The position numbers were made by a program, and so were the translations under genes. A stretch of 64,000 bases of DNA from positions 28,111 to 92,110 of IMG/VR virus record IMGVR_UViG_3300022842_000007. The stretch is one strand, 5' to 3'. The notes under the pieces were generated by a model. That model had not been told where the DNA came from. It did no database searches and saw only the letters and a list, made by a program, of their open reading frames with translations. The stretch's first letter is position 1; every line of letters begins with the position of its first letter. Of this stretch, positions 14,048 to 58,191 are shown one piece after another. Origin of the DNA: a virus.

Positions 14048-14576
14048 TATAATGATAGATATGGAAACATTAAGCACGAGAGCCGACTGTGTGATATTAA
14101 CTATTGGTGCTGTGCGATTTGATCCCAGGGGCATTGGTGTAGTAGAGCGCATTGAAATCAGACCCACAATAGAAGAACAAACTGCCGATTTTGACAGACA
14201 TATTGATGAAGAGACTCTGGATTGGTGGGGAAGACAATCAGATGATGCAATCAATGAATCAATGGGTGATACAGGTCGAGTACCATTTAAAGTCGCAATG
14301 GAACAGTTGCACAAATTTTGTTGGAATCAAGGAAAGATATGGTCCAATGGTTCTGTTTTTGATGTAATCATAGCTGAACATGCATTCAATCAATTAGATA
14401 TAACTCATCCATGGCGATTCTGGAACATCAGAGACTGTCGAACAATATATAATCTTTGTAAAGTATCTTTAAAAGATGGTTCTCATGTAACCTCTCACAA
14501 AGCAGTAGAGGATGCTGAACACCAAGCAATAGTAGTGCAACGAGCATATTTAAAATTAACGGAAGCAGGATTGTAA
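14037..14576 (+). CDS. DEDDh 3'-5' exonuclease (DexA/DnaQ-like)
   Basis: ExoI DIMIDMET, ExoII NGSVFD, ExoIII HKAVEDA; GGAG RBS; TAATG coupling to the next gene. Confidence 0.85.
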   Translation: MANDIMIDMETLSTRADCVILTIGAVRFDPRGIGVVERIEIRPTIEEQTADFDRHIDEETLDWWGRQSDDAINESMGDTGRVPFKVAMEQLHKFCWNQGKIWSNGSVFDVIIAEHAFNQLDITHPWRFWNIRDCRTIYNLCKVSLKDGSHVTSHKAVEDAEHQAIVVQRAYLKLTEAGL

Positions 14577-15160
14577 TGCATCAATCGGATATTGACATAG
14601 ATTTTGGTGATAGGACGAAGTTGTTAAAAGTAATACAACATATTCCTGCATCCATGCGTAATGTCAGTCCGATTAAAAAGCATCCTACTGGTGTATACAT
14701 TACAGAAGTTCCGTATGATCCTGTTAATGATATGTGTGCATTGGATTACAAAGAAGCCGATGCTCGTAAATATTTTAAATTAGATTTGTTGAATGTAAAT
14801 GTGTATCAACAAGTTAAAGATGAACATCATTTGATTAGTCTTATGGCAGAGCCAAATTGGGAACGCCTTAAGGAAAAAGACTTCGTAGAGCAATTAATAC
14901 ACTTAAATAAACAATATGATATTTTACAAAAAATGCCACAAGAAATAAATAGTATTCCAAGATTAGCAATGTTCCTGGCTATCATTAGGCCTGCTAAAAG
15001 AACGCTCATAGGAAGAACGTGGGAACACATTAGTAAAACAGTATGGATAGATAACAATCGTGGGTACACATTTAAGAAATCGCATGCTGTAGCATACGCA
15101 CAATTAGTTGTGGTACATATGAATTTAATCGAAGAAGGAAAAACCCGTGACGGAATATAG
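14576..15160 (+). CDS. Minimal DNA polymerase III alpha (DnaE)-like protein, catalytic (C-terminal) half of a split enzyme
   Basis: SDIDIDF, KHPTGVYI, YFKLDLL, LAIIRP and GYTFKKSHAVAYA in DnaE order within 194 aa. Confidence 0.85.
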   Translation: MHQSDIDIDFGDRTKLLKVIQHIPASMRNVSPIKKHPTGVYITEVPYDPVNDMCALDYKEADARKYFKLDLLNVNVYQQVKDEHHLISLMAEPNWERLKEKDFVEQLIHLNKQYDILQKMPQEINSIPRLAMFLAIIRPAKRTLIGRTWEHISKTVWIDNNRGYTFKKSHAVAYAQLVVVHMNLIEEGKTRDGI

Positions 15161-15410
15161 CGATACAGTAGAAAGACAGCGGTTGCGCATAAACTCAGAG
15201 AAGTGGGGGAAGGGTATTACAACACTTCATGCGCATTCATTAACATCTATGTGGTATGATACACGCAAGACAGATGGCTCGGTAATAGACACTGAATACA
15301 ATAATGGTTCTATTAAACGAGTAATACAAAACACTGGTGAAATTATTTACTTTGGAAAAGCACTCACAGGAGATGCATTAATGGATGCATACGGAAGTCA
15401 TGGGCAATAA
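15147..15410 (+). CDS. Hypothetical protein
   Basis: GTG start after AAGGA; fills the gap. Confidence 0.55.
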   Translation: MTEYSDTVERQRLRINSEKWGKGITTLHAHSLTSMWYDTRKTDGSVIDTEYNNGSIKRVIQNTGEIIYFGKALTGDALMDAYGSHGQ

Positions 15411-15957
15411 ACTAGAACTTACGCTAATTGATGAAAGTAATCCTTTATTAAAAGAACCCTGCACTGCCTGGGATTTTACATCAGACGGTTCACCAACTGA
15501 ACTGGTGTCTGCTTTGACAAGAGTTATGTTTAGCCCTAATCATGGTGGTATTGGGTTGGCCGCACCACAGTGTGGAGTGATGAAAAATATATTTGTCATG
15601 GGAAGCAATGAAAATTTGATTGCTGTTATTAATCCTGTCATTGATGAATTAATTGGCGACAAAGAGATGTACTTAGAAGGTTGTTTAAGTTATCCTGATC
15701 TTTGGTTACATGTACTAAGACATCCAGAATGCATCGTATCGTATCAAACACTCGACGGCACTGCGGTTGAAAGAAAACATCTTACGGATCTACAAGCAAG
15801 AGTATTTTTACACGAATTTGATCATTTATTAGGTATAACATTTGAAGAACGAGTACAGAGTAAACTTAGTTTAGAATTAGCTAAGAAGCGTAGAGTAAAG
15901 AAGAGGCGTCAAACAGAAAAAGCTATCAAAAGAATGAAAGCGAAAGCAACTCAGTAG
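15400..15957 (+). CDS. def: Peptide deformylase
   Basis: GGIGLAAPQ, EGCLS, HEFDH; Lys/Arg-rich C-terminal helix. Confidence 0.95.
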   Translation: MGNKLELTLIDESNPLLKEPCTAWDFTSDGSPTELVSALTRVMFSPNHGGIGLAAPQCGVMKNIFVMGSNENLIAVINPVIDELIGDKEMYLEGCLSYPDLWLHVLRHPECIVSYQTLDGTAVERKHLTDLQARVFLHEFDHLLGITFEERVQSKLSLELAKKRRVKKRRQTEKAIKRMKAKATQ

Positions 15958-16343
15958 GTTCGTTTTACTAACGTAATAGATTTTCTCTTAACACGTTTCT
16001 TTTGAAAATCAGTCATACTAACAACAGGGCCGTGTAGTAAATTTAGTGCTTTGTTGTTGAATGTTCTGATAAAAGGTTTGAAGGCTGTCCATTCATCTTT
16101 CAAGAACAGGTTGATTGGTATTTGTCTATTCGATTCCCACCACCATACATCGCCTAATTCTAAAAACAGAACTTTAAGATCAGCATCATGTATCGCTCCG
16201 TAATCATACATAGTAGTGACCAGATCATCTCGGTTCTGTATGATGCCCACGTGGTCTTGTCCAGCATACTGAAGCACCGATATGAAAGGGTGAGTTTCGG
16301 TCAGTTTCTGAAAATAATCTAGTGGGTTCTTTGCATCTGTCAT
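15951..16343 (-). CDS. Hypothetical late protein
   Basis: 130 aa with WWWESNR; late-promoter-like TTAAATA at 16354-16360 (-), divergent from 16403. Confidence 0.7.
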   Translation of the reverse strand: MTDAKNPLDYFQKLTETHPFISVLQYAGQDHVGIIQNRDDLVTTMYDYGAIHDADLKVLFLELGDVWWWESNRQIPINLFLKDEWTAFKPFIRTFNNKALNLLHGPVVSMTDFQKKRVKRKSITLVKRTY

Positions 16344-16402
16344 AGTCTAATAGTATTTAACTCTGGAAAATAATTGGTGTAATTTCTTTAGATTGGGTTA
16401 AA

Positions 16403-16410
16403 GATAAATA
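16403..16410 (+). promoter_or_regulatory. Late promoter GATAAATA
   Basis: Followed by AAGGAG and the ATG at 16437. Confidence 0.7.
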
Positions 16411-16436
16411 TAGTTAATAAAGGAGATTAGAATGCC

Positions 16437-17237
16437 ATGTCTTACACGACATCAGTTTACACATACACAGTCCGACAGATTGTTGTCGTCCTGTCAGGTA
16501 CAAGTCCGAGGAAATATATGCCAGTTTATGCAAAACCATTAACACTAAACAAGGGTGTTGACAATCAACTACAGTTTCAGTTTCTGAATCAAGAGCAGAA
16601 GCCAGTAAACCTGTCGGCATTAGCGGCCGCTAACTTGCAAATTTCTTTCAGAGCATTAAACTCAGACGGTACCTCGGTCCTTTTTAGAAAGGCATTAGAA
16701 CCCGTATATGATGTTACTGGCATCTTTGTGCTAAACACCTCTGCCGCACTGATAGAAGACATTGTTGCTCAAAAAGGATCGTATTCTTTAGAATGGCCTA
16801 GTGGAAATCTAAAGTTACCGGTATTCACTGATTCAAAAGCAGGCGCACGTGGGGATTTAAATATTGTAGATTCGGTTCTACCGTCATTCGTCCCTTCACA
16901 ACTTGTCACGATTCCAAGCTCCCAGACGCTCCCTGCCGCAAATGCCAATGCGAATACGGTAGCTGTCACGTTTTTCTCAAGTACGATTGATACGCAATCT
17001 AATCCAATCCTATCGACCTCACTTGATTACGCAAATTTTGTTGGTAATATGACAATTCAAGGTTCAACTACGTCTGATGCAGACTATTATGACATCAGTT
17101 CATATGAATATGGCAACGCCGCAAATGGTGCATCTGAGTCTGGTACAATTGGTTACACGATCAATGGGTATCATCCATTCATCCAACTTAAATTTACTGC
17201 AAATGTGGGTAACATAACAACGATTCTAGCAAGATAA
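16437..17237 (+). CDS. Virion structural protein (BppU-N/Ig-like)
   Basis: LTLNKGVDNQLQFQFLNQEQKPVNL; Thr/Ser/Asn-rich beta protein; late promoter. Confidence 0.6.
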   Translation: MSYTTSVYTYTVRQIVVVLSGTSPRKYMPVYAKPLTLNKGVDNQLQFQFLNQEQKPVNLSALAAANLQISFRALNSDGTSVLFRKALEPVYDVTGIFVLNTSAALIEDIVAQKGSYSLEWPSGNLKLPVFTDSKAGARGDLNIVDSVLPSFVPSQLVTIPSSQTLPAANANANTVAVTFFSSTIDTQSNPILSTSLDYANFVGNMTIQGSTTSDADYYDISSYEYGNAANGASESGTIGYTINGYHPFIQLKFTANVGNITTILAR

Positions 17238-17240
17238 GTT

Positions 17241-17280
17241 ACCCTCTTTACTTGTTTTCTCATTCTTTTTAGTATATAAT
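17241..17280 (+). promoter_or_regulatory. CC-N7 class promoter (TTGTTT-N17-TATAAT), leaderless, for primase-helicase
   Basis: ATG 7 nt after the -10 box; no SD. Confidence 0.6.
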
Positions 17281-17287
17281 TACAGAT

Positions 17288-18265
17288 ATGTTTGATATAC
17301 TCACGATTATTCCTGGCAAAAAGAAAAAGACACAAAGCGGTTGGAATTCATTCAATGCTCCGTGCTGTGCTCATAATGGCCACACTCCCGATAAACGCAT
17401 GCGTGGCGGTATCAAACAAGATGGAGACAATTGGCAGTTTCATTGTTTCAATTGCAACTTCAAGTGTGGCTTCCAGTTAGGTAGATCGATCAGCAAAACG
17501 TGTCGTAGATTTCTACTCTGGCAAGGCATGCCTGAAACAGACATTAACAAATGGTCTTTGCATTCTGTTCAGCACAAAGACTTGATTAATTCGATATTGT
17601 CGAAAAAGAAACAGCTGGTGGTGCCGGCGTTTAAAGAAATGCCTATGCCTGCAGGCGAGTTGATTTACGCAGGGAACAAAAAGCATAAAGTTTATATAGA
17701 CTACCTACATACCAGAGGGATGACTCAAAATGATTATCCTTTTTTAGTAACCCCTGATGAAGAAGGTAGAGAAGCAAATAAATTGATTATACCCTTTACA
17801 TATCAAAACAAAGTTGTAGGTAGCACTAGTAGATACATAGATGGTAGAAAGCCCAAGTTTATAAGCGATCAACAACCAGGTTATGTATTCGGCACAGACT
17901 TGCAAAGGGACACGTGGGGAATAGTCTTGGTGTTTGAAGGCATCTTTGATGCAATCTCAATGAATGGGTTAGCAGTGACAGGTAGCGAAATCAATGATAA
18001 TCAAGCCGTGATTATTAAAAGATTGGGTAAACGTGTTATTGTTGTTCCTGATCAAGATAAAACAGGATTAGAGATATGTGATCGTGCATTAGACCTGGGT
18101 TTTGAGGTAGCACTACCAAATTGGTATGGTGCTGACAAAATGGATGCAAATGAGGCAATAATAAAATATGGTAAATTAAATACCCTACTAAGTATACTTG
18201 ATGCCGCAACCAGTAGTAAAATAGTTGTGGAAATGATGAGGAATAAAATTGCTAAAAGAATTTAA
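17288..18265 (+). CDS. gp61: DNA primase (gp61/DnaG-like)
   Basis: Zn-binding N-terminus (APCC...HCFNC); TOPRIM FEGIFDA and VPDQDKTG. Confidence 0.9.
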   Translation: MFDILTIIPGKKKKTQSGWNSFNAPCCAHNGHTPDKRMRGGIKQDGDNWQFHCFNCNFKCGFQLGRSISKTCRRFLLWQGMPETDINKWSLHSVQHKDLINSILSKKKQLVVPAFKEMPMPAGELIYAGNKKHKVYIDYLHTRGMTQNDYPFLVTPDEEGREANKLIIPFTYQNKVVGSTSRYIDGRKPKFISDQQPGYVFGTDLQRDTWGIVLVFEGIFDAISMNGLAVTGSEINDNQAVIIKRLGKRVIVVPDQDKTGLEICDRALDLGFEVALPNWYGADKMDANEAIIKYGKLNTLLSILDAATSSKIVVEMMRNKIAKRI

Positions 18266-19691
18266 CATAGAAGTGCAAGAGTTATTCTTGCGAATGATGG
18301 TAACGAACGCAGAACTATTTATAAGAACCAGTAATATATTTAACGCGGAAAATTTTGATCGTAAATTACAGCCAGTTGCAGAATTTATGATTGAACATTC
18401 AACTGAATATAAATGTCTGCCTGATCCTACACAGATCAAAGCAACAACTGGTGAAACAATAGAAGCAGTTTCAGATTTAGATGAAGGCCACTATGAATGG
18501 TTTATGGATGAGTTTGAAGCATTCACACGTAGACAAGAATTAGAAAGAGCCATCATGAAGTCGGTTGACCTTTTAGAACAAGGTGATTACAACCCTGTTG
18601 AGAAACTTATCAAAGATGCGGTGCAAATCTCATTACTAAGAAACATGGGCATCGACTATTTTGATGATCCACGTGGTCGATTGATGCATCTTAAACAGAG
18701 TAATGGAGAGTCCTCTACGGGCTGGCCTTGTCTTGATCAGAAACTCTATGGTGGCTTTAACAAAGGCGAACTACAGATTTTCGCTGGTGGCTCCGGTTCA
18801 GGTAAATCGTTGATGATGCAAAATCTATCAGTTAACTGGTTATTACAGGGCAAGTCAGGGGCATTCATCACACTTGAGTTAAGTGAGGAATTAACAGCAA
18901 TGCGTGTTGACTCAATGATAACTGGTACAAAAACAAAAGAGGTGTTTAAAGATTTAGATAATGTCGAGATGAAAGTGAAGATGAAACAAAAAGTATCCGG
19001 CAACTTTCGAATTAAGTATCTTGCGGCACAATCAACAGCAAACGATATTCGAGCATACGTCAAAGAATTGCAAATACAAACTGGCATGAAAATAGATTTC
19101 TTGTGTGTCGATTACTTAGATTTGCTAATGCCTGTTAGTGCAAAGGTATCTCCGAGTGACTTGTTTGTTAAAGACAAATATGTCTCTGAAGAACTTCGTA
19201 ACCTTGCAAAAGAGTTTGATATAATCTTTGTAACAGCATCACAGTTAAACAGAGGGGCAGTAGAAGAACTCGAATTTGATCACAGTCACATCTCTGGAGG
19301 CATCTCTAAAATACATACTGCTGATAATGTGTTTGGTATCTTTACTAGTCGTAGTATGCGAGAACGCGGTCGATATCAAATACAGTTGATGAAAACTAGA
19401 TCGAGTTCTGGAGTAGGACAAACAGTAGAACTAGCATTTGACACAGAAACATTGCGTATTACCGACCCAGGGGCAACTAGCACAACCGCATATGGAGCAT
19501 CCTCACCTGCATTGCCAGCACCGGTACGGAACTCCGCACAAATTCTCATGGAAAAATTCAAGACAACTTCAGCAGTTGGAGCAACGGATGAGTTAGTACA
19601 TGCTCAATTAGAGCCATCGAACAAAAAACCTGTCGGTGATATTCAAAGTACTAAATTAAAATCATTGTTGAACTCTCTAAAAGACAAATAA
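18249..19691 (+). CDS. gp41: Replicative DnaB-like helicase (gp41)
   Basis: GGSGSGKS, TLEL, VDYLDL, TASQLNR, KTR. Confidence 0.93.
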   Translation: MLKEFNIEVQELFLRMMVTNAELFIRTSNIFNAENFDRKLQPVAEFMIEHSTEYKCLPDPTQIKATTGETIEAVSDLDEGHYEWFMDEFEAFTRRQELERAIMKSVDLLEQGDYNPVEKLIKDAVQISLLRNMGIDYFDDPRGRLMHLKQSNGESSTGWPCLDQKLYGGFNKGELQIFAGGSGSGKSLMMQNLSVNWLLQGKSGAFITLELSEELTAMRVDSMITGTKTKEVFKDLDNVEMKVKMKQKVSGNFRIKYLAAQSTANDIRAYVKELQIQTGMKIDFLCVDYLDLLMPVSAKVSPSDLFVKDKYVSEELRNLAKEFDIIFVTASQLNRGAVEELEFDHSHISGGISKIHTADNVFGIFTSRSMRERGRYQIQLMKTRSSSGVGQTVELAFDTETLRITDPGATSTTAYGASSPALPAPVRNSAQILMEKFKTTSAVGATDELVHAQLEPSNKKPVGDIQSTKLKSLLNSLKDK

Positions 19692-19713
19692 TATGCCCAT
19701 ATGGGCACTAAAG

Positions 19714-19721
19714 ACTAAATA
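19714..19721 (+). promoter_or_regulatory. Late promoter ACTAAATA
   Basis: Variant of the late consensus; preceded by the palindrome TGCCCATATGGGCA. Confidence 0.55.
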
Positions 19722-19741
19722 GTACTAAGGAAAATACACTT

Positions 19742-19984
19742 ATGCAAAAGAAAACCCGAAGTCTATTAGAAGAACTTGAATCCATTGGTGTTAACCGCGA
19801 CATTCCTCATCTGGTTGAGTCTCGTGGTAGCAATATCATTACTAGTGCAGTTAATCTATTAGAATTCATTGAGAAAAACTTTAGCGAGGATGACGCTGAT
19901 ATGTTAGAGAAAAAATTATTAAGTGCTATTAAAGGAAGGGATAAAACTCGTTTTTCTAAGACGATGAAAAAAATACAAGGGTAA
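19742..19984 (+). CDS. Hypothetical late protein
   Basis: 80-aa ORF with RBS AAGG. Confidence 0.7.
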   Translation: MQKKTRSLLEELESIGVNRDIPHLVESRGSNIITSAVNLLEFIEKNFSEDDADMLEKKLLSAIKGRDKTRFSKTMKKIQG

Positions 19985-19988
19985 TACA

Positions 19989-20690
19989 ATGAAGTTCGAT
20001 GATGTAATCACAGAAGCCGGTATATTTAAGTTTGGTAACGACAAGAGCGCAGAAAAAGCACCTAGTATTAAAGGCGGAACGAATCGTGCTACAAAATTAT
20101 CAAAGAAAATCTTTCTTGACGATTTTTCAAGTGATTTAATAGGTTCCATACAAAGTGGATTGCAATCCGGCTTGATTCAGCCACCAATTATTGCAACAGC
20201 AAACGAAAATTATAACAGATTAAATCAAATACTCGAAACTGTCATCATGACATCTGAAAATACAGCATCCGCATCCGCAGGAATGGATATAAAGACATAT
20301 ATCGCGCAATGGCTTGGACAATATATGCAAGGGGTTGATTACACTGCGCATAAACCTGCTTTGTCTCGAATAATAGATCAAATAGCAGTAGCATATAACA
20401 ACAGTACTAATCCAAACAGTCCTAATATTGACAGAAATCTTGTAACTCAGTTAGGCAACGGTGGCTGGGCCGCATCAAAAAGTGTAGTGCCAAAAGGCGC
20501 AAAGAATTCAGTACCTGGCAGTACTATCTTGCCACCCAATGCTCCAGATGGACCGATTGATCACGATGCCGCAGACAATACAGGCGACCGAATTGATTAC
20601 GATGAGCCAGCATACAAAAGAGTAATTCCAAGAGAGAAATTCAGTGAGTCAGCCAAACGAGCAGAAAAACTGAAGAATCTGAAGAAGTAA
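19989..20690 (+). CDS. Putative internal head protein
   Basis: N-terminus MKFDDVITE resembles a capsid-targeting/cleavage leader. Confidence 0.55.
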   Translation: MKFDDVITEAGIFKFGNDKSAEKAPSIKGGTNRATKLSKKIFLDDFSSDLIGSIQSGLQSGLIQPPIIATANENYNRLNQILETVIMTSENTASASAGMDIKTYIAQWLGQYMQGVDYTAHKPALSRIIDQIAVAYNNSTNPNSPNIDRNLVTQLGNGGWAASKSVVPKGAKNSVPGSTILPPNAPDGPIDHDAADNTGDRIDYDEPAYKRVIPREKFSESAKRAEKLKNLKK

Positions 20691-20692
20691 TT

Positions 20693-21841
20693 ATGAACCT
20701 TGCCGAGTCACTCGCCAGTTTAACAAAAAAATTAAACGCGATCAGTATAGTTGAGGGCAAAGGACACTTGGACCACCCAGAAGACTTGGTATTTTTAGAT
20801 GATATCGCCGGCGCAAAACAAGCTATCTCAGCAATAGAACAGACTGTAAACAATCCAAACAATATAACAATCAAATGGGATGGTTATCCTGCCCTGATCT
20901 TCGGTCGTGGTACAGACGGTAGATTCTCTGTTATGGACAAGCATATGTTCAATAAGAGAGATGGTACTGGTCGTCAAGTATTCTCTCCTAAAGAATTTAA
21001 AGCATACGATGTAGCACGTGGAGTAAACAGAGGTGACTTGTACAATATTATTAATGGAATATGGTCAGGACTAGAAGCAAGTGATCGAGGCACGTTAGGT
21101 TTTTACTGGGGAGACTTGTTATTTTCTAAACCTCTCACCGCAGTTAACGGCGAGTATTCTTTCAAGGGAAATCCAAATGGCATCGCATACAAAGTCACCG
21201 CAGACAGTGATGTTGGTAAATTGTTAGCAAATAAAAAAGCTGGTATTGCAGTACATCAGTTTATTCCGGCAACTGCATCATCAATTGATGAAGCAGAATC
21301 ACTTGACGGTACAATAGGTACTCTCAAGGACAATTCAGACGTAGCAATTGTTCCTAGCAAAATGCCGATCACGCCTAACATCAAAATGCCAACTGATCTT
21401 AAAGGAAAAGCAGAACAAGAGATTGCCACAAATGCTAATGCTGTGCATTCTCTCATGCAGGCAGCACCTCAGTCCCGCAACTCATTTAACATGCTGTTTA
21501 CAGTATACGTTAACAAGAAAATTGTCTCTCAAGATTTGTCAAACATGTACAGTGGTTTTACAGATTTTATACAAAACCGCAAAATGACAGACTCGATGAG
21601 AACTAAAATTACTACTCATTTCAATAACCATAAAGCCGGTGTTGCTGGCGCATTTAAGATTTGGATAGCAATATATAATCTAAAACAAAATATCATTGCC
21701 CAACTAGATCAGGCCGCTAAGGCCAGCCCGGTTAAAGGGTTTTTAGATGATGGCACAGAGACCCATGAAGGGTTTGTTGCAAATGGTGTTAAGTTTGTCA
21801 ATCGTCAGGGCTTTTCTGCTCAAAATCTCGCTAAAAGATAG
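20693..21841 (+). CDS. ATP-dependent ligase-fold nucleotidyltransferase (RNA-ligase-like), probably virion-associated
   Basis: Motif I TIKWDG, motif III GDLLF, motif IV EGFV, motif V KFVNR; N-terminal HLDHPEDL. Confidence 0.65.
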   Translation: MNLAESLASLTKKLNAISIVEGKGHLDHPEDLVFLDDIAGAKQAISAIEQTVNNPNNITIKWDGYPALIFGRGTDGRFSVMDKHMFNKRDGTGRQVFSPKEFKAYDVARGVNRGDLYNIINGIWSGLEASDRGTLGFYWGDLLFSKPLTAVNGEYSFKGNPNGIAYKVTADSDVGKLLANKKAGIAVHQFIPATASSIDEAESLDGTIGTLKDNSDVAIVPSKMPITPNIKMPTDLKGKAEQEIATNANAVHSLMQAAPQSRNSFNMLFTVYVNKKIVSQDLSNMYSGFTDFIQNRKMTDSMRTKITTHFNNHKAGVAGAFKIWIAIYNLKQNIIAQLDQAAKASPVKGFLDDGTETHEGFVANGVKFVNRQGFSAQNLAKR

Positions 21842-21869
21842 TCTTATAACCTTGTTTTTTTACATTTAG

Positions 21870-21930
21870 CATAAATAAATGTATGGACCTCATGCTGAGG
21901 GACAACAAACTACAGGACTCGGAACGAGTC
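21870..21930 (+). promoter_or_regulatory. Late promoter CATAAATA and two 5'-leader hairpins
   Basis: CCTCA-TGC-TGAGG and GACTCG-GAA-CGAGTC directly downstream. Confidence 0.6.
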
Positions 21931-21950
21931 TTTAAAAAAGGAATATTATA

Positions 21951-22337
21951 ATGGCACAATTTACAAGAGCAAATGGTGATTTTCAACCAGTATTAAGATT
22001 AGACAGCACTTCTTATACTAACGGCGGCGTTAACGTTGCAACTACAGGCGTAACAGTACAACCACAAGGACCCAAGTTAGACTATTGGACAATCACTGCG
22101 GCCGGTGCTTTAACTCCTGCTGACCTTAAAGTCGGTTTTGATATAATTCAAAATAAAGCAACAATCTACATTTATGAGTATACAGACGCGGCTTCTGATC
22201 TATTAGCTATCGCAGTATACCCAACAGCGGCATATGATGCGGCTACGTTGCAGGTTGATGTTCGATTAGGACTTAACGGTTGGGTTGGATGTACAGCCGC
22301 GAGTGGTGCAGAATTTAGTGGTCTAGCACAAGCGTAA
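21951..22337 (+). CDS. Small, probably abundant virion protein (decoration-like)
   Basis: Own late promoter, structured leader, strong RBS and own terminator; Ala/Gly/Thr-rich. Confidence 0.65.
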   Translation: MAQFTRANGDFQPVLRLDSTSYTNGGVNVATTGVTVQPQGPKLDYWTITAAGALTPADLKVGFDIIQNKATIYIYEYTDAASDLLAIAVYPTAAYDAATLQVDVRLGLNGWVGCTAASGAEFSGLAQA

Positions 22338-22359
22338 GCTAACAACGTAACAAATTAAG

Positions 22360-22387: not shown

Positions 22388-22404
22388 GGTTACTAAATAG
22401 TCAT

Positions 22405-49429: not shown

Positions 49430-52400
49430 ATGGCACAAAGAAATATTGACTTCGGCGCATTCCCAGACGATCCAGATGCAGATGCGATACGCTCGGCATT
49501 CGAAAAAGTACAATTAAATTTTACAGAAGTATTTGCGGGTCTAGGTGATCAAGCAGTTGTCTCTGTCAATAAAACAGCGGGCGCAGGTGTAACAGTAAAT
49601 CAATCTACTGGTAACGTAGTTGTTACTGCCAACCTCGCATGTGTGCAGATGACCACCACTACATTACAATTAGGGCAATCTGGTCCTGGTAATGGTGTAG
49701 CTGGCGGTACTATTATACTTAATGCTTCTACCCAACAAGCAACGATTGATTTACCAACAAACATTGTTACAGGTCTAGTAAATCTGACTGCGACAGGAAA
49801 TGTCACTGGTGGCAATGTCAATGCGACTTCTGGTGGTGGTAATTTTCAATGGGTTAAGGGTGATGGAGCAAATTTAACAAATATCGTAGCGTTAGTAGCA
49901 CAAACCGTATCAAACGCGGCACAGCCAAATATTACATCAGTGGGAACATTATCTGGATTAGCAGTAACAGGCAATATTACTTCGGGTAATGTAGCAGGTA
50001 CAGGTGGGGTATTCACGTATTTCTCGGGAGATGGCGCAAATTTAAGTTTTATTGCAGGTGGTAACGTAACAGGTACTGTACCATTTGCAACAACAGCGAA
50101 CGCAGTATCAGGGGCTAATGTCTCAGGTGAAGTAGATTTTGCTCAAGTAGCAAATGCAGTAGCAGGCGCAAATGTCTCGGGTACTGTTCCTTTAGCGACA
50201 TCGGCCACGACAGCAGGCACAGTAACAACTGCCGCACAACCAAATATTACATCAACGGGTACACTCACTGTATTAAATTCAAGTGGCACGATAACTGCTC
50301 CTGCATTTACAGCGAACACTGGTATCTTTACTGGTGATGGTGCGGGCTTAACCAATGTTACTGGCGCAAACGTCTCAGGCGCTGTTCCGTTTGCAGGAAC
50401 AGCAAATGCAGTAGCAGGCGCAAATGTCTCGGGTGAAGTTGATTTTGCACAAGTAGCAAACGCAGTAGCAGGGGCAAATGTCTCAGGTGAAGTAACCTTC
50501 GCCGCAACAGCAAATGCAGTAGCAGGCGCAAATGTAACAGGTACTGTTTCTTTAGCATCTTTGGCAACGTTCGCAACCACAGCAAATGCAGTAGCAGGAG
50601 CTAATGTCTCAGGTACAGTCCCAGTAGCGACAAGTGCTACATCAGCAAACGCAGTAGCAGGAGCAAATGTCTCAGGTACTGTTCCATTAGCAACTACAGC
50701 AGGTACTGTAACAACTGCGGCTCAGCCAAATATTACTTCTGTAGGTACTTTAACCGCATTAACTGTGACAGCAGATATTGTTGGTAGTGTTACGGGTAGC
50801 GCGGCTACTATAACAACGGCCGCACAACCAAATATTACTTCTGTAGGTACATTATCTACACTAGCAGTTACTGGAAATATTGCATCAGGTAATGTTGCAG
50901 GCACAGGTGGAGTATTCACGTATGTCTCGGGAGATGGAGCGAACTTAACAAACCTCTCAGTATCAGCAGGATCAAGCATTGTCAATGGATCTAGTAACGC
51001 AACAGTTGATGCTAGTGGTGCATTCAGAGTTTCGACTGGTGGAACAGCAAATTTATTAGTAGTACAAGATACAGGTGTAACAGCAATAGTAACAGGTTCT
51101 ATGTCAGTAACAGGTGGATTAGAAGCCATAAACTTTAATAGTACATCAAACTTAGGCCCAGTAGCTAATGTAACAATCACTGGTGGAACCAGTGGTGGCT
51201 TCTTAAAGACAAATGGTTCAGGTACCTTATCGTTCGACACTGCAACACTAGTTCCAGCACAAGGTGCAGACACACAGATCATATTTAATGATGGTGGCTC
51301 TACATATGCTGGTAACACAGGCTTTACGTTTAATAAAGCATCTGGTGATGTTGCTGTCCCAGGTAATATCAATGTACCTGCAGGAAAGAATATAGTAGCA
51401 GGTGGCAATGTTAATGCTACTTTACTCGGTGGAGCTTTATCAACTGCCGCACAACCTAACATTACATCAGTGGGTACATTGACATCATTGATTTTAGGCG
51501 GTGCATTTAACACAAACAGCAATATCATTACTAACGCTGGTAATATCGAAATATCTAGCGGCTCGGGAACATTCAAAGGTAATGGCGGTGGATTAACAAA
51601 TTTACCAGGTGCTAACGTATCAGGTGCTGTCCCATTAGCAACAAGTGCTACATCAGCGAACGCAGTAGCAGGTGCCAATGTCTCAGGTGAAGTTGATTTT
51701 GCACAAGTAGCAAACGCAGTAGCAGGTGCCAATGTCTCAGGTACAGTCGCACTAGCAACTACAGCAACTACCGCAAGTACAGCGAACGCAGTAGCAGGTG
51801 GTAACGTATCAGGTGCAGTCGCATTAGCATCAAGTGCTACATCAGCAAACGCAGTAGCAGGGGCAAATGTCTCAGGTGCAGTCGCATTAGCATCAAGTGC
51901 TACATCAGCAAACGCAGTAGCAGGTGGTAACGTATCAGGTGCAGTAAGTTTCGCAACAACAGCAAACGCAGTAGCAGGTGGTAACGTATCAGGTGCAGTA
52001 AGTTTCGCAAGTACAGCGAACGCAGTAGCGGGTGCCAACGTATCTGGTCAAGTAGCAAATTCACTTGTCTCAGGTACGGTATATACAGCGGCACAACCCA
52101 ACGTTACATCAGTTGGTACATTGCTGTTGCATTCAAATACCGATACTGTCTCGGCCGCCGGAACGACACAAGGCGATGCAACACAATTAACAACTGAGAT
52201 AAACAGAGTTACAACTGTCGGTGCAAGTTCAGGTGTTAAACTACCGAATGCTGTCGGTGGATTAATAATTTTTATTACTAATACATCAGCAACTACATTG
52301 GCAGTATATCCTAACACGAGCGATATAATTAATTCACTCGGTACTAACGCATCGTACTCGCATCCTGCAGGCGGAACATTACAGTATATCTGTACCAACG

Positions 52401-52438
52401 CTACAAATTGGTATACTGTAGGCGCGACATATGCATAA
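49430..52438 (+). CDS. Long tail fibre-like protein
   Basis: IDFGAFPDD..AD.IR.AF.K...NF.E baseplate-anchor N-terminus; ANAVAGANVSG and TAAQPNITSVG repeats; late promoter 49400-49407. Confidence 0.8.
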   Translation: MAQRNIDFGAFPDDPDADAIRSAFEKVQLNFTEVFAGLGDQAVVSVNKTAGAGVTVNQSTGNVVVTANLACVQMTTTTLQLGQSGPGNGVAGGTIILNASTQQATIDLPTNIVTGLVNLTATGNVTGGNVNATSGGGNFQWVKGDGANLTNIVALVAQTVSNAAQPNITSVGTLSGLAVTGNITSGNVAGTGGVFTYFSGDGANLSFIAGGNVTGTVPFATTANAVSGANVSGEVDFAQVANAVAGANVSGTVPLATSATTAGTVTTAAQPNITSTGTLTVLNSSGTITAPAFTANTGIFTGDGAGLTNVTGANVSGAVPFAGTANAVAGANVSGEVDFAQVANAVAGANVSGEVTFAATANAVAGANVTGTVSLASLATFATTANAVAGANVSGTVPVATSATSANAVAGANVSGTVPLATTAGTVTTAAQPNITSVGTLTALTVTADIVGSVTGSAATITTAAQPNITSVGTLSTLAVTGNIASGNVAGTGGVFTYVSGDGANLTNLSVSAGSSIVNGSSNATVDASGAFRVSTGGTANLLVVQDTGVTAIVTGSMSVTGGLEAINFNSTSNLGPVANVTITGGTSGGFLKTNGSGTLSFDTATLVPAQGADTQIIFNDGGSTYAGNTGFTFNKASGDVAVPGNINVPAGKNIVAGGNVNATLLGGALSTAAQPNITSVGTLTSLILGGAFNTNSNIITNAGNIEISSGSGTFKGNGGGLTNLPGANVSGAVPLATSATSANAVAGANVSGEVDFAQVANAVAGANVSGTVALATTATTASTANAVAGGNVSGAVALASSATSANAVAGANVSGAVALASSATSANAVAGGNVSGAVSFATTANAVAGGNVSGAVSFASTANAVAGANVSGQVANSLVSGTVYTAAQPNVTSVGTLLLHSNTDTVSAAGTTQGDATQLTTEINRVTTVGASSGVKLPNAVGGLIIFITNTSATTLAVYPNTSDIINSLGTNASYSHPAGGTLQYICTNATNWYTVGATYA
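50040..52050 (+). repeat. Two blocks of coding ANAVAG[A/G]NVSG repeats (about 50040-50700 and 51600-52050)
   Basis: Many near-identical gcaaa(t/c)gcagtagcagg units. Confidence 0.85.
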
Positions 52439-52467
52439 TGTTTTGCATATTTAGAAGGAAAAAGCAA

Positions 52468-52929
52468 ATGAAATTAAGTAACAATTTCACAGTAGCAGAG
52501 TTTATCAAAAGCCAAACTGCATTACGTCATGATTTGGATAATAGCATGTCCGAAGAACATTTCGAAAATGCAAAATTACTATGTGAAAATGTAATACAAT
52601 TAGTTAGGGATCATTTTGGCCCTACAACGATTTCCAGTGGATATCGCGGCACCGCTCTTAATAAAAAAGTAGGTGGAAGCAGTAAATCACAGCATTGTGA
52701 GGGGAAAGCGGCCGATACTGAAGTGGCTGGCGTGACTAATTATGAACTTGCGAAATGGATAGAAGAGAATTGTGAATTTGATCAACTTATTTTAGAGTTT
52801 TATACTCCTGGCATCCCCGATTCAGGATGGGTGCATGTTTCATATAATAAAGACGGAAACAGAAAAGAAACATTGACTGCATCCAGAATAAATAAAAAAA
52901 CTCATTACTCATATGGATTACAAAAATGA
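52468..52929 (+). CDS. Peptidase M15A (Zn-dependent), probable endolysin
   Basis: LSNNFT..EF, SSGYR, SQHCEGKAAD, WVHVSY; AAGGA RBS before ATG 52468. Confidence 0.88.
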   Translation: MKLSNNFTVAEFIKSQTALRHDLDNSMSEEHFENAKLLCENVIQLVRDHFGPTTISSGYRGTALNKKVGGSSKSQHCEGKAADTEVAGVTNYELAKWIEENCEFDQLILEFYTPGIPDSGWVHVSYNKDGNRKETLTASRINKKTHYSYGLQK

Positions 52930-55469
52930 GCCATGGTCCAGACTGGACAACCCCTGCAGGGACAATAGGAACGTATCCATCTCAAGTTGAGATGTCATTT
53001 ACATTTTCTGCGACTGCAATTTCCCCAGGTACAGCAGTTACATATACTGTCTTAAGTGGCAGTATACCTAGCGGTCTCGTACTAAACACAACTACTGGTG
53101 TATTATCAGGAGTACCATCTACCATTGGTGGTGATACCGTGTATAATTTTGCTATTAGAGCATCTGACAATCAAGTAGGTACAGATCAAACAATAGCAGA
53201 CAGAACATTTAGCGTAGAAATTAGTGGTGTTGCGGCACCTACCTTTACTACGCCAACAGGCACAATTTTAAATACGAACGACAGTGTTTGGAGAGAAATC
53301 CAAATTGAAATTTCTAATCCAGTTACTACTAATGCATATTCTATTAGAGTAGCACAAGGAAAATTGCCGCCTGGACTTGAGATAAACACTCAAGGATTAA
53401 TAAGAGGCTATGCTGATGCACCTATCATTAATGTTAACTATCCTTTAGTGACAACATCAGCATTGGCTATATCTTCAAACATTATACAAGTACTAAGCAC
53501 GACTGGATTTATACTAGAAAGACCTATTAACTTCTCGGGAACAGTCTATGGAGACATTGTTGCTGGTAGAACGTATTTTATTAAAACTATCATAGATGCA
53601 ACAACTTTTACTATATCAGACTCTAGGGGTGGAAGTGAAGTTGTACTGGTTGACGCTGTTGGTAATATGACGGCATCACTACCACAAATTCAAGTTGGTC
53701 AACCAACTGTTCAAACTTATAGCTTTACATTAGGACTTGATTCATTGTTGGGGACGGCAATCGAATCATACATTATCGTGGTTGCCAATCAAAATGCATC
53801 GTCAAGTGAAGGTGGTCCTGGATATCCAGGCAACAGCAGAACACCAACAATCTTTAACACTCGACCTGCAACATTTGACGTAGGTAAAAATGATCCTACT
53901 AATTATGGATATTATGTTTTCCCTAACGACAACGAGAATACCACATATTTACCAGCCCAGCCAGCAGATATTGGACAGTATCAAAGTGGGGAGTATTTTG
54001 CTTTTAAAATGTTGGGAAAAGATTTTGATGGTGACGCATTAACATATCTATACGCAGATTTACCCTTGGGAATAGTCGGAGATCCAGTTACTGGATGGAT
54101 TACTGGATATCCCACGATTGCTGAAGGCATAAGTGAATTTTCTTTTTCTGTGAATGTCAGAAAGTCAAGTTTTACTAATGTATCTAGTACAACATTTAAT
54201 TATAGCATGCGTGTTACTAACGGTATACTCGGTACAGTGACGTGGATCACGCCTACTGCATTAGGCACTATGTTTAATAGCCAAACATCTGTATTAGCAG
54301 TGAGTGCAACAGCAGACGTGGACCTATCTTTCAGAGTAACTAGTGGCGCACTCCCATCTAATTTAGTATTACTAGATAGTGGTGAAATATCTGGTATCGT
54401 CGCTTATCAACCAACTGTTGGTATTCTTCCAGCTAATGCAGAGACATCGTTTGACTTTACAATTGAAGCATACTCACCTATCTACCCAATAGTTCATTCT
54501 ACTAAAGAATTTACACTTGAAATCAAGCAAGAGTTTTCCCAACCAACAGACACATTATATATTAAATGCGTTCCATCAATCGCGGATAGAAATATTATCA
54601 ACCAATTGTTAACAAGTACCACGATCATTCCATCAGCAGACTTGTATAGAGCAGAAGATGTGAATTTTGGAAAATCGACTAGTATTGTATACGAACATGC
54701 ATATGGCATTTATGCGAGTGACTTTGATGAATATGTAATAGCATTAGAAAAGAATCATTACTGGAGAAACATTACTCTCGGTGAGATAAAGACAGCAGTT
54801 GCAAAAAACAATGCCGGTGATGTAGTCTATGAAGTTGTTTATTCACAAGTACAAGACAATTTAGTTAATCCTAAGGGAAAAAGTGTTAGCAAAACGATTA
54901 CGTGGCCCAGAGACATTCCGATAAACTTAGGAAACTGGTACACCAGTGCCACTGACATTTATTCCAGCTATGTTGGAGAAGGGACAGTAGCTGGTCAACC
55001 AGCATACTTTACATCATTAACACCAGGATTTGCCAGAACACTGTATCCAAATAGTTTAGACAACATGAGGGCACAGACAGGTGATGTGTTAGGACAGGAA
55101 TATGACTTTAGATTGTTGCCTGCTTGGATGACATCTCAGCAACCAAATGGCTCAACATTAGGGTATACTCCTGCTTGGGTCATAGCATACTGTCAGCCTG
55201 GAACATCAGCCCAGATTAAAACGAATGTAGAAACACTCTGGGTTGATCCTATAGGAAACCCATACACATTAAACACGATTAATTTTGAATTAGACAGGAT
55301 AACGGTTGATAAATCTATTACTTACGACTATGATAATAATGTAGTACCTCCTGCATGGACAGGTTTACCAAGTGCATCGCCTCCTCCGTCCCCAACAGAT
55401 TCTAAAGATTTCCATGTGTTGTTTCCAAGAAAAACCATCTTACCAGACGAGAAAAATGTATCTGGTTAA
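52926..55469 (+). CDS. Baseplate/virion protein with cadherin/Ig-like repeats
   Basis: Repeated SG.LP.GL.L...G.I.G motifs; ATGA coupling. Confidence 0.75.
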   Translation: MSHGPDWTTPAGTIGTYPSQVEMSFTFSATAISPGTAVTYTVLSGSIPSGLVLNTTTGVLSGVPSTIGGDTVYNFAIRASDNQVGTDQTIADRTFSVEISGVAAPTFTTPTGTILNTNDSVWREIQIEISNPVTTNAYSIRVAQGKLPPGLEINTQGLIRGYADAPIINVNYPLVTTSALAISSNIIQVLSTTGFILERPINFSGTVYGDIVAGRTYFIKTIIDATTFTISDSRGGSEVVLVDAVGNMTASLPQIQVGQPTVQTYSFTLGLDSLLGTAIESYIIVVANQNASSSEGGPGYPGNSRTPTIFNTRPATFDVGKNDPTNYGYYVFPNDNENTTYLPAQPADIGQYQSGEYFAFKMLGKDFDGDALTYLYADLPLGIVGDPVTGWITGYPTIAEGISEFSFSVNVRKSSFTNVSSTTFNYSMRVTNGILGTVTWITPTALGTMFNSQTSVLAVSATADVDLSFRVTSGALPSNLVLLDSGEISGIVAYQPTVGILPANAETSFDFTIEAYSPIYPIVHSTKEFTLEIKQEFSQPTDTLYIKCVPSIADRNIINQLLTSTTIIPSADLYRAEDVNFGKSTSIVYEHAYGIYASDFDEYVIALEKNHYWRNITLGEIKTAVAKNNAGDVVYEVVYSQVQDNLVNPKGKSVSKTITWPRDIPINLGNWYTSATDIYSSYVGEGTVAGQPAYFTSLTPGFARTLYPNSLDNMRAQTGDVLGQEYDFRLLPAWMTSQQPNGSTLGYTPAWVIAYCQPGTSAQIKTNVETLWVDPIGNPYTLNTINFELDRITVDKSITYDYDNNVVPPAWTGLPSASPPPSPTDSKDFHVLFPRKTILPDEKNVSG

Positions 55470-55511
55470 TTTGAGTTGATAAATAAGTATAGCAGAGAGA
55501 ACTAATAAATT

Positions 55512-56813
55512 ATGAGCACGATCAATACAAACGGCATCGATGTTAATTATCCAAAACCTGGAGTGAACAACTCGACGCAGGGATTCAGAGATAATACAAC
55601 TGCTATTAAGAATAATCTTAATACGGCTGGAATAGAAATCACGGACTTACAAGAGAAGGTTGTTGTTAAAGCAGGCTTGGTAGGAATACCTATCAATAAT
55701 GACATGGCCAATACTCTTATTAGCAATGCGGCAATCAGATCGTTTCGTTCTACCACATACAATCTAGGAAATTCTATTGCAGGCACAATTGTAATTGATG
55801 CTACCTTAGGTGATGTGCAATATGGCACAATCACAGGCAACACTACCCTGCAACTAGCAGGTTGGGCACCAACTAATACTCAAAGTAAAATAGAATTAGA
55901 TTTAACGATAGCAAATACCGAAGCATATATTATTTTTCCAGGCACAGTAACTGGTAGTGATGTGATCATTGAAAATAATACAACTGTTGGTGGAAACCTA
56001 GCAATTACTGCACCGTACAATGTTACTAATCTACAATATTCATTAGTTACGACTGATTGTGGCAACTCGGTTACCATCGAACCTCTTAATAGACCCTATC
56101 AAACATCTCAAGTAGAAGTCAGAAATGTAATTACACCAACAGGTTATCAAGGTGATGTCAACGGAGACATCGCATTAGCACCAAAAATACAGCCAGTCTT
56201 AGTGACTGCCACGACAACATCATCTAATATCTTAACAACTGCATCAACAGAAGGTTTCTATCTAGGTATGCCAATTCAATTTTATGGAGTTGTGTTCGGT
56301 AACATCGTTGCAGGAACTATATATTATGTCCGAACAATAGTTGCAAACACTTCATTTACAGTTAGTGCATCAGAAGGCGGCGCAGACTTTGCTTTAGTCA
56401 CGGCCTCTGGGACAATGCAAGGCGCTCCCACAGTATACGTCTATCTATGCGTAGGCGCGTTTGATAGTAGTGTCACGACTGCAAACGTATATTCATCTGA
56501 TGCAACAACCGATAGAATAGAGTTTGCTACCACTGTATCGAACATTGCAAGTTATGGTCTTAATCAACCAATCGTATTTACAGGTGCAAATATCACAACT
56601 ACAGGTCTGTTAACAAATACTGCTTATTACATAAAAACGGTAAATGTAGGAGCAAATACAGAAATAACAGTAAGTCGCTCACGTGCCAATGGTATTGCAG
56701 GAACAACAGAGGAATTAACTACTGTCGCAGGTGGCTCGATAGCTTCTGTTACTGGAACTGCATACACTCAAGGCAATGATATTTGGAAACGAACAAATTT
56801 GGTTTCCTTTTAA
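55512..56813 (+). CDS. Virion structural (fibre/baseplate-associated) protein
   Basis: YP.PGVNN.TQGFRDN N-terminus; beta modules; IWKR end; late promoter 55478-55485. Confidence 0.7.
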   Translation: MSTINTNGIDVNYPKPGVNNSTQGFRDNTTAIKNNLNTAGIEITDLQEKVVVKAGLVGIPINNDMANTLISNAAIRSFRSTTYNLGNSIAGTIVIDATLGDVQYGTITGNTTLQLAGWAPTNTQSKIELDLTIANTEAYIIFPGTVTGSDVIIENNTTVGGNLAITAPYNVTNLQYSLVTTDCGNSVTIEPLNRPYQTSQVEVRNVITPTGYQGDVNGDIALAPKIQPVLVTATTTSSNILTTASTEGFYLGMPIQFYGVVFGNIVAGTIYYVRTIVANTSFTVSASEGGADFALVTASGTMQGAPTVYVYLCVGAFDSSVTTANVYSSDATTDRIEFATTVSNIASYGLNQPIVFTGANITTTGLLTNTAYYIKTVNVGANTEITVSRSRANGIAGTTEELTTVAGGSIASVTGTAYTQGNDIWKRTNLVSF

Positions 56814-56822
56814 GGAGGCGTT

Positions 56823-57068
56823 ATGACAATACCACATCCTTTTGTCAGTGATTTATCTGATAAAAGCGTAGAAGAGTTGCAAGAAACTCTGAGTCAACTC
56901 ACCAATAAAATTACTATTGCTTATAGCATGGGCAACCAACCACTCATACATCAATTGACCATGGCCATAGTCAGCTACAAAGAAGAACATAGAAAACAAT
57001 TAGATGTTTTGTTTGGTGAGAAAGATTTAGCAGACAACATAAAGGTAGAGGGGGATAACAAACAGTGA
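56823..57068 (+). CDS. Hypothetical helical protein
   Basis: AAGGAGG RBS. Confidence 0.75.
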   Translation: MTIPHPFVSDLSDKSVEELQETLSQLTNKITIAYSMGNQPLIHQLTMAIVSYKEEHRKQLDVLFGEKDLADNIKVEGDNKQ

Positions 57069-57640
57069 GTACTAGGATTGAGCGCGATATTGCATTTGAT
57101 AGTGCTGTCCATTTCGCTGAAAACTTCTATATCAGTCAATATTACATTACCCTTTCGATGATAGTCCAAACAAACGTCATCTCAGAACAAAATAAAGCAT
57201 TAGAAAGAATACTACACTTTACACACACCGTACTTAATAACGCTTTGTTCATTGATCAGTCAGACCTCGACGCAATTGACAAATACAAAAACGCTGGCAT
57301 GAGAGTATGTGTTATGCCAGACGAACCATACGATCAAATAGTATCAATGACATTACTACAAAAGTTTAATGCTATCACAGAAGGCCGTCTACACATCACT
57401 GACTGTACCTTAGGATCTAGTTTAGGCGATGGCGTAAGATTCTGTACTGTGCAAGAAGCATCAGATAATGCTATTGAACATGGGCCCGGCCTTTGGTGGA
57501 ACTGTAGCAATCTATGCACCGAGCATACAGCAGATAAAGCACGAACAGAAAATATAGTCCATCTATTCACTGATGACGCTTGGGAAAGTCTAGACCTTAC
57601 CTTCGTAAAGAAAACGGGCAAATCAGCCCACAAAAAGTAA
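57065..57640 (+). CDS. Hypothetical protein, possible degenerate QueD/PTPS T-fold
   Basis: IERDIAFDSAVHF...LNNALF...EPYDQIV; GTGA coupling. Confidence 0.55.
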   Translation: MSTRIERDIAFDSAVHFAENFYISQYYITLSMIVQTNVISEQNKALERILHFTHTVLNNALFIDQSDLDAIDKYKNAGMRVCVMPDEPYDQIVSMTLLQKFNAITEGRLHITDCTLGSSLGDGVRFCTVQEASDNAIEHGPGLWWNCSNLCTEHTADKARTENIVHLFTDDAWESLDLTFVKKTGKSAHKK

Positions 57641-57678
57641 TCCATTTTACTTGCTTATTCACCTAATTACTGTACAAT
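57641..57678 (+). promoter_or_regulatory. CC-N7 class promoter (TTGCTT-N16-TACAAT), leaderless
   Basis: ATG 6 nt after the -10 box. Confidence 0.6.
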
Positions 57679-57684
57679 AGACGC

Positions 57685-58191
57685 ATGATTGTAAATATCT
57701 TTGGACAGCCTGTCTACTCCGAAAATGACTTATTTGACCTATACATGGTTGATCCTAAACTAACGTTGAAAAAAACTCTAACTGATAGTAAAATAGATTT
57801 TAATGCAGAATTAGATTTGAGTGCAATTCCAGAATTAATTAAGCATGAATTAAAACATATATCTGTAGCAGAGTTTGATGAAGAAATGAGAAGCAACTGG
57901 TTCATGCCGGAATCATATAAAAACTTAGATATTGCAGAATGGGTGTTAAATCAATGCACACATGAAGAAGAACTCCAGCGTGTGGGCAAAGAATTGTTAC
58001 TGTACCAAAAACGAGAATTATTTCCTTTACTTCAATACATGAAGTATCTTGTAGACTTGATGAGGGAACATGACATCGTATGGGGCGTTGGGCGAGGATC
58101 TAGTGTTTCAAGTTTTGTTTTGTTTTTGATCGGTATTCACCGTATAAATAGTTTATATTACGATTTAGATATCAAAGAATTTTTAAAATAG
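57685..58191 (+). CDS. Minimal DnaE-like protein, N-terminal half of a split enzyme
   Basis: RV.KEL, LVD.MRE.DIVWGVGRGSSVSS.VL.LIGI..I....YDL...EFL matches the DnaE GPGRGS...LLFERFL segment. Confidence 0.85.
   Translation: MIVNIFGQPVYSENDLFDLYMVDPKLTLKKTLTDSKIDFNAELDLSAIPELIKHELKHISVAEFDEEMRSNWFMPESYKNLDIAEWVLNQCTHEEELQRVGKELLLYQKRELFPLLQYMKYLVDLMREHDIVWGVGRGSSVSSFVLFLIGIHRINSLYYDLDIKEFLK

Follow-up and report, generated by a model that had tools for sequence, protein, structure and literature searches.

Results

The two genes and their products

We analyzed a 64-kb stretch of viral DNA, hereafter called the window, which is the final 64 kb of the 92,110-bp record IMGVR_UViG_3300022842_000007. 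Two genes in the window, separated by 42.5 kb, encode small proteins that resemble adjoining pieces of the catalytic core of the bacterial C-family replicase, DNA polymerase III alpha (Pol III alpha), and that we refer to as the N-half and the C-half (Table 1). CheckV rated the record 26% complete and, given its length, it would therefore be a fragment of a jumbo phage with a whole genome of roughly 350 kb. An initial annotation of the DNA had read the two open reading frames (ORFs) as a split and miniaturized polymerase of this family, and both were present exactly as it gave them, with 168 and 194 amino acids (aa) and a sum of 362 aa. Nucleotide searches with both regions against 50,697 phage records gave no match, and relatives were reached at the protein level only; identity to cultured phages was 41-55% for the N-half and 36-46% for the C-half.

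Table 1. Positions of the two polymerase genes and of neighboring features in the window
Feature	Position	Strand	Basis
N-half, split minimal Pol III alpha, 168 aa	57685..58191	+	ORF, PF07733, phrog_11127, structural alignment
C-half, split minimal Pol III alpha, 194 aa	14576..15160	+	ORF, phrog_11778, profile, model
Rv2179c-like (DEDD-type) 3'-5' exonuclease gene	14037..14576	+	Pfam PF16473, E 9.1e-34
Sigma-70-like promoter-like site before the N-half, CTTGCTTA-N15-TACAAT	57650..57678	+	consensus match
Second copy of the promoter-like motif, upstream of the exonuclease/C-half pair, CTTGCTTA-N16-TATAAT	13969..13998	+	consensus match
PhyH-type (phytanoyl-CoA dioxygenase family) gene, upstream of the C-half operon	13325..14047		
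Peptide deformylase gene, downstream of the C-half operon	15385..15957		
GroES-like gene	58834..59211		

The N-half matched Pfam family PF07733 (DNA_pol3_alpha) with an E-value of 1.3e-9 and 38.5 bits (cut-off 23.9) over profile positions 16-94 of 260, which was the only match to this family in the whole record, and it matched phrog_11127 ('DNA polymerase') from end to end (E 5.7e-40). The AlphaFold model of the chain folded alone had a mean predicted local distance difference test score (pLDDT) of 79.6, with low confidence in the block that holds the GRGS motif (pLDDT 59) and in the C-terminal residues 161-168 (pLDDT 43). Structural alignment with VIA-align placed N-half residues 73-167 on residues 279-390 of Escherichia coli DnaE (Z 7.2, root-mean-square deviation (rmsd) 2.9 Å, 87 residues aligned), and residues 307-413 of Mycobacterium tuberculosis DnaE1 were aligned to the N-half with a Z of 7.3. 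The best Foldseek E-value was weak (0.09), yet all the top rows were Pol III alpha. The aligned region is the first part of the palm with the triphosphate-binding GRGS loop (G136-S139), and residues 1-72 have no DnaE counterpart and form a lineage-specific extension. Across 30 N-halves the segment G134-S140 (GVGRGSS), GRGS included, was invariant, as were D65 and W72 in the extension.

The C-half was not matched in a Pfam scan; it did match phrog_11778 ('DNA polymerase') over its entire length (E 1.2e-54). A search of the Protein Data Bank (PDB) with the single sequence returned nothing relevant, and a profile was needed. Built from 76 full-length representatives that were 29-53% identical to the query, this profile retrieved Pol III alpha chains only, with E. 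coli DnaE (5m1s_A) at the top (E 9.5e-6), and it aligned C-half residues 54-140 with E. coli DnaE 538-641, from the K-x-D strand through the RP motif, and residues 151-180 with 739-769, which hold the FNKSH motif. The AlphaFold model (pLDDT 94.9, predicted template modeling score 0.88) superposed on residues 459-841 of the Thermus aquaticus (Taq) Pol III alpha with a Z of 9.9 and an rmsd of 3.5 Å, with 189 of the 194 residues aligned, and on E. coli DnaE 397-781 with a Z of 8.6 and an rmsd of 3.4 Å (182 aligned). The Z was 9.7 for M. tuberculosis DnaE1 (5lew) and 7.0 for residues 968-1304 of 9qpc ('DNA polymerase with inhibitor'), in comparison to 3.1 for the nearest unrelated fold. Foldseek again gave a weak E-value (0.015), and yet its top rows were without exception Pol III alpha. 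DnaE and PolC proteins were the best and the only clear structural matches to both halves.

In the 76 C-half representatives D5, D7, K68, D70, R138 and P139 were invariant, and D9, H36, G39, K167 and H170 were nearly so. Counted from the first aligned residue of the structural alignments, D5 and D7 correspond to D463 and D465 of Taq and to D401 and D403 of E. coli, and in the profile alignment D70 falls in the KFDFLGL strand of the E. coli protein at D555. The corresponding aspartates are catalytic in the E. coli and Taq enzymes. The C-half contains the second part of the palm with D5, D7 and D70, followed by trimmed fingers with R138-P139 and a KKSH motif, in which K168 and H170 match E. coli K758 and H760; the thumb is absent. 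Its 194 residues cover a 385-residue stretch of E. coli DnaE, which means that about 190 residues, including the thumb, are deleted. The retention of three catalytic aspartates and the heavy trimming of thumb and fingers, both claimed in the initial annotation, were confirmed by the invariance of these aspartates and by the extent of the deletion.

The position at which the chain is broken was the same to the residue, with all 29 aligned split N-halves terminating in ...EF[LI]K. The window N-half ends in ...EFLK followed by the stop codon, and the C-half begins with MHQSDIDIDF. On the DnaE structure the N-half ends near residue 390 and the C-half begins at 397, leaving about six residues missing between them, so the proposed abutment at the FL/DxD junction held to within these few residues. 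With the N-half terminating at the junction and only four C-half residues preceding DxD, there is no room for an intein, and PHP, OB, helix-hairpin-helix (HhH) and Hint/intein domains were not found by Pfam in either protein. The earlier description of the pair as intein-less, and as devoid of PHP, HhH and OB regions at about one third of the length of DnaE (362 versus 1160 aa), was thus accurate. Of the features of canonical DnaE and PolC, the pair has no PHP, thumb, full fingers, clamp-binding motif or OB domain and is not a single chain of about 1000-1400 aa; of those of a C-family catalytic core, it has the Pol-beta-like palm, the GS loop, the three aspartates and, via the N-half, a PF07733 match above the cut-off.

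Conservation of the two halves in related phages

In a first set of five long IMG/VR records, which were picked for carrying the C-half, a separate N-half ORF of 168-178 aa was found 35-44 kb from the C-half in all five. In a second set of five the N-half was found in three, and in the other two its expected position lay beyond the end of the contig. Together, the halves were separate genes in 8/8 IMG/VR records with the expected position on the contig, at a spacing of 35-47 kb. The four complete cultured phages SCTP-2, PA5oct, Atu_ph07 and 121Q each carried one copy of each half, 31-182 kb apart. A tblastn search of phage records detected the C-half in 96 and the shorter N-half motif in 86, a gap of ten records; the N-half of SCTP-2 was not among the 40 tblastn matches listed and was picked up by a more sensitive profile search. 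Both families are widespread: more than 7,900 clusters at 90% identity matched each half, among 8,000 candidates scored, and the C-half was represented by 388 clusters at 50% identity and by at least 598 IMG/VR loci.

The surroundings of both genes were conserved in the window, PA5oct, Atu_ph07 and 121Q, where the C-half lies between a UvsW-like helicase gene and a pair of genes for a primase and a gp41-like helicase, and where the N-half is followed by a small ORF, a GroES-like gene and the clamp loader gene. Because this synteny has been kept, the split and both gene positions are ancestral to the group. In comparisons with relatives the synonymous sites of both halves were saturated, with proportions of synonymous differences (pS) of 0.70-0.93 and of nonsynonymous differences (pN) of 0.12-0.33, and the ratio of nonsynonymous to synonymous rates (dN/dS) was 0.10-0.16 for both halves where dS was computable. 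Both halves are under strong purifying selection. The initial annotation had asked for co-occurrence of the halves, a conserved split point and purifying selection. All three were found: every record with both positions on the contig had both halves as separate genes, the split point was identical in the 29 aligned N-halves, and dN/dS was about 0.10-0.16 in both genes.

Among the 388 representative clusters a single protein, P0302 (375 aa), contained both halves. It consists of an N-half part at residues 74-180 (39% identity), a 10-residue linker and a C-half part from DFDID onward (38% identity), and its PF07733 match extends over the junction. P0302 is a singleton on an ENA contig of 2,415 bp, so the fused form is rare, and a scan of viral contigs for P0302 relatives found none.

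A metagenome scan for the context of P0302 returned only the loci L002 and L003, both with ordinary full-length DnaE genes. The DnaE at L002:8366-12382 (OKRZ01000398.1) is of full size, with the PHP domain on a separate upstream ORF (382 aa) and a polymerase body of 933 aa; its break point differs from the one described here, and it may reflect either a frameshift or a true split. A search for longer proteins gave one hit, P0241 (350 aa), which carries the last ~115 C-half residues (49% identity) behind 225 unrelated residues and was rejected as a fusion of the two halves. Encoded on an ENA contig of 2,036 bp, it contains the fingers part only, without the catalytic aspartates, and could have arisen as an assembly chimera or by domain shuffling.

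Predicted complex of the N-half and C-half

Co-folding of the two proteins, which had been proposed with the initial annotation, gave an interaction prediction score from aligned errors (ipSAE) of 0.90 in three runs, compared to 0.41 for the best control. Of 80 solved complexes 58 attained this mark, as did 2 of 110 mismatched pairs. The three runs had at least 96% of their contacts in common, with a partner pLDDT of at least 89, and the N-half had a mean pLDDT of 89 in the complex, higher than when folded alone. In the predicted complex the GRGS strand (N-half 129-142) packed on the DxD strand (C-half 2-11), and N-half D65 and W72 were among the highest-confidence contacts, touching C-half residues 42-44 and 64-66. 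The prediction shows that the modeled pieces fit together as in DnaE; binding in the cell is a separate matter. As structures of DnaE have been solved, the high score may partly mirror memory of the intact fold rather than provide independent evidence of binding.

Replisome context

The window carries T4-like replisome genes at 9674-11137, 17288-19691 and 59276-60199, which encode a helicase, a primase, a DnaB/gp41-like helicase and a gp44-like clamp loader. The helicase matches PHROG 'DNA helicase' families and sits where 121Q has its UvsW-like helicase. Each of the four complete relatives encodes a family B polymerase (PolB) of about 800-1100 aa, and so do two of the five long fragments; in one relative, G001, the gene is located about 25 kb past the N-half.

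Discussion

Based on fold, conserved residues and gene context, we consider it likely, with a probability of about 0.7, that the products of the two genes are the two subunits of the minimal split Pol III alpha known from group 2.2 jumbo phages and that this is an active accessory polymerase. In this enzyme the N-half would give the first part of a Pol-beta-like palm, whose GRGS loop would grip the triphosphate of the incoming nucleotide, and the C-half would give the metal-binding D5/D7 strand, K68 and D70, together with short fingers (R138, K168, H170) closing the nucleotide pocket. As neither protein has a complete active site, the halves would have to join non-covalently, forming a heterodimer of about 42 kDa. 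The existence of one enzyme with a composite active site, made from two polypeptides and no intein, had been put forward in the initial annotation and is supported by the co-occurrence, the selection, the fused protein and the complex prediction. The heterodimer is expected to be a template-dependent DNA polymerase of low processivity, working beside the family B replicase in a T4-like replisome, perhaps in primer extension or short-gap filling on the lagging strand, or in repair, and not in bulk synthesis. It is read as poorly processive and as an accessory to PolB because it has no thumb, clamp-binding or OB part and no proofreading, and because the residues of the templated dNTP pocket are kept. 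The earlier view that the pair is unlikely to be the processive replicase fits with the separate PolB of the relatives and with the missing thumb, clamp-binding, OB and tau-binding parts.

Several observations weigh against this interpretation. The PolB that the enzyme would assist was not found in the 92-kb record, although this record is only 26% complete and probably has no such gene because its sequence stops 6 kb after the N-half. The fused form is known from one metagenomic sequence. The thumb holds the primer-template duplex in DnaE, and as both the thumb and about 190 residues of the palm insert and fingers are gone, the pair may bind DNA only weakly or depend on other factors to do so. 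The role in primer extension, gap filling or repair is suggested by gene neighborhood and analogy only, and we hold it weakly. Furthermore, the literature that we searched gave no biochemical or genetic data on any member of the family.

Other explanations can be considered for the same proteins. They could form an untemplated nucleotidyltransferase that uses only the Pol-beta-like palm, for instance a terminal transferase, an enzyme that tails or caps DNA or RNA ends, or one that makes a nucleotide signal or a decoy. The initial annotation had raised this possibility, and it gains from the loss of the thumb and of most DNA-binding parts of DnaE, as well as from the many enzymes of this kind that share the Pol-beta-like fold. 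However, the RP and KKSH elements of the fingers, which shape the templated dNTP pocket in DnaE, exceed a bare palm and are kept (R138-P139, K168/H170), invariant or nearly so. Moreover, the structural neighbors are only replicative C-family polymerases, over 182-189 of the 194 C-half residues, and both genes lie among replisome genes, which makes an untemplated enzyme improbable. We regard it as similarly improbable that the pair is the main replicase, or one of two co-equal and strand-specific replicases as in Bacillus, where PolC and DnaE provide one polymerase per strand. The pair is kept in every relative examined and is embedded in replication modules, as would be expected of a replicase, but all complete relatives have a full-length family B polymerase, and a protein without a thumb, a recognizable clamp-binding tail, an OB/tau-binding domain or built-in proofreading is poorly suited to processive synthesis on its own.

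The extreme reduction of the proteins, whose activity has never been measured, could also mean that they are catalytically dead relics or structural adaptors of the replisome. This is very unlikely, as the invariant residues are exactly the catalytic and nucleotide-binding ones (D5, D7, K68, D70, R138 and the GRGS loop) and both genes are under strong purifying selection. A post-translational joining of the halves into one chain, by split-intein trans-splicing or another ligation, would have its textbook precedent in the intein-joined split DnaE of cyanobacteria. Some 100 plus 35 additional residues would be required for a split intein, whereas the N-half ends about six DnaE residues short of the C-half start and four residues precede the DxD motif of the C-half. 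With no intein or Hint domain found by Pfam and a split site unlike the cyanobacterial one, the lengths effectively refute such a joining.

The split enzyme as such is already known. In their account of group 2.2 jumbo phages, Iyer, Anantharaman, Krishnan, Burroughs and Aravind (2021, Viruses 13:63, PMC7824862) described a "minimal, split DNA Pol III alpha" encoded by distant genes beside a family B polymerase, with an N-terminal NTP-binding and a C-terminal Mg2+- and template-binding piece. This is the same reading as ours, reached independently, and the finding in the window is a correct rediscovery. The same account suggested cooperation with PolB in the synthesis of one strand or in repair. 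Later literature that we found consisted only of annotation of the halves in genome papers; both halves also stand as families in PHROGs v4, and many GenBank records label them DNA polymerase III alpha. The window agrees with the group 2.2 enzyme, as described there, in having two separate and distant genes without other Pol III domains and PHROG matches from end to end. It also carries T4-like replisome genes, and a PolB was found in relatives and not in the record itself. The group consists of T4-like jumbo phages of the Rak2/PA5oct/Atu_ph07 type, and the flanking synteny of the window is that of PA5oct, Atu_ph07 and 121Q. The window differs in coming from an uncultured aquatic relative that is distant in identity, and its sublineage differs in having an Rv2179c-like exonuclease gene directly upstream of the C-half and a promoter-like site abutting the N-half ATG. 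Compared with the description of the split polymerase by Iyer et al. (2021), we add the fused 375-aa form, the structure-based mapping of residues and the complex prediction. Also new are the matching promoter-like sites, the lineage-restricted exonuclease neighbor and one more distant aquatic member.

With the bacterial enzymes (E. coli DnaE, Taq Pol III alpha and Geobacillus kaustophilus PolC) the phage pair shares the palm, the GS loop, the three aspartates and the RP/KSH fingers. In contrast to these, it has 362 rather than 1160 aa, lacks the PHP, thumb, beta-clamp-binding, OB and tau-binding parts, has a chain interrupted between the GS helix and the DxD strand, and is viral and found alongside PolB. 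The dnaE-n and dnaE-c genes of cyanobacteria likewise encode one C-family polymerase at two distant loci, but their products carry split-intein fragments and are spliced to a DnaE with the full set of domains, whereas the pair described here is intein-free and broken at another point. Compact unsplit DnaE-like polymerases, such as those of the relative G005 and of Streptomyces and Rhizobium phages, are also phage-encoded and reduced members of the C family, but each is one continuous chain in which the PF07733 (E 1.3e-42) and finger (E 1.4e-16) domains are both complete.

The relative G005 has both split halves, a PolB and, a few kb from the PolB, an unsplit PHP-less DnaE of 559 aa (L095:1390-3066, + strand, corresponding to G005:C1:54889-56565). 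Its nearest match in the phage database, at 37.6% identity, was in an uncultured phage of 484 kb. Neither the window record nor four other fragments yielded this protein, and the G005 protein was rejected as a fused form of the split pair, to which its relatedness is too low.

At about 42 kDa in two chains, the pair ranks with the smallest C-family polymerase cores predicted. Should it prove active, it would show which parts are the minimum for Pol III-type catalysis and, as argued by Iyer et al. (PMC7824862), it would be a model for how the bacterial replicase may have been put together from modules. Activity would also raise the question why widespread jumbo phages keep a bacterial-type polymerase beside an archaeo-eukaryotic-type family B replicase. 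The remaining problem is biochemical rather than genomic, and the enzyme is an attractive target for biochemistry.

Neighboring genes and promoter-like sites

The TAA stop codon of the exonuclease gene overlaps the ATG of the C-half (TAATG). The ATG at 14037 is preceded by a GGAG at a distance of 5 nt, so that the TTG listed as the start of this gene, at 14016, is probably not the true one. In 46 of 80 related IMG/VR loci the exonuclease gene was found upstream of the C-half at a distance of at most 1.3 kb, sometimes with a small gene between them. Almost all loci that keep it have a C-half at least 59% identical to that of the window, and it is absent from most loci at 57% or less. It was absent upstream of the C-half in PA5oct, 121Q and Atu_ph07, and the family was present in one of the four complete phages. 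We therefore rejected the exonuclease as an obligate partner of the split polymerase, and the restriction of its adjacency to the closer C-half loci indicates a lineage-specific neighbor rather than a defining part of the system. Within the sublineage it may be a proofreading partner.

The motif CTTGCTTA-N14-17-TANAAT occurred exactly twice in the 64-kb window, with no match in each of 100 shuffled sequences; a promoter search with fixed spacing found the N-half site only. The -10 box of the N-half site ends 6 nt before the ATG, and 8/8 marine relatives have a comparable sigma-70-type site that stops 5-10 nt short of the N-half start codon. As the -10 box lies so near the start codon, the mRNA of the N-half may be leaderless or nearly so, made from an early or middle-type promoter. 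No site of this kind was seen at the N-half gene of PA5oct, Atu_ph07 or 121Q, which in these phages abuts or overlaps the ORF that precedes it.

A broader and speculative idea, which we consider unlikely, is that in the aquatic sublineage the two alpha pieces and the epsilon-like exonuclease form a three-protein 'minimal Pol III core', co-regulated from the two matching promoter-like sites and acting as a primer-extending hand-off polymerase of the T4-like replisome, in a role like that of Bacillus DnaE or eukaryotic Pol alpha. If true, such a core would be a division of labor not known for T4-type phages.

The PhyH-type and peptide deformylase genes on either side of the C-half operon adjoin it again in many marine relatives, and they are auxiliary metabolic genes inserted in the replication module.

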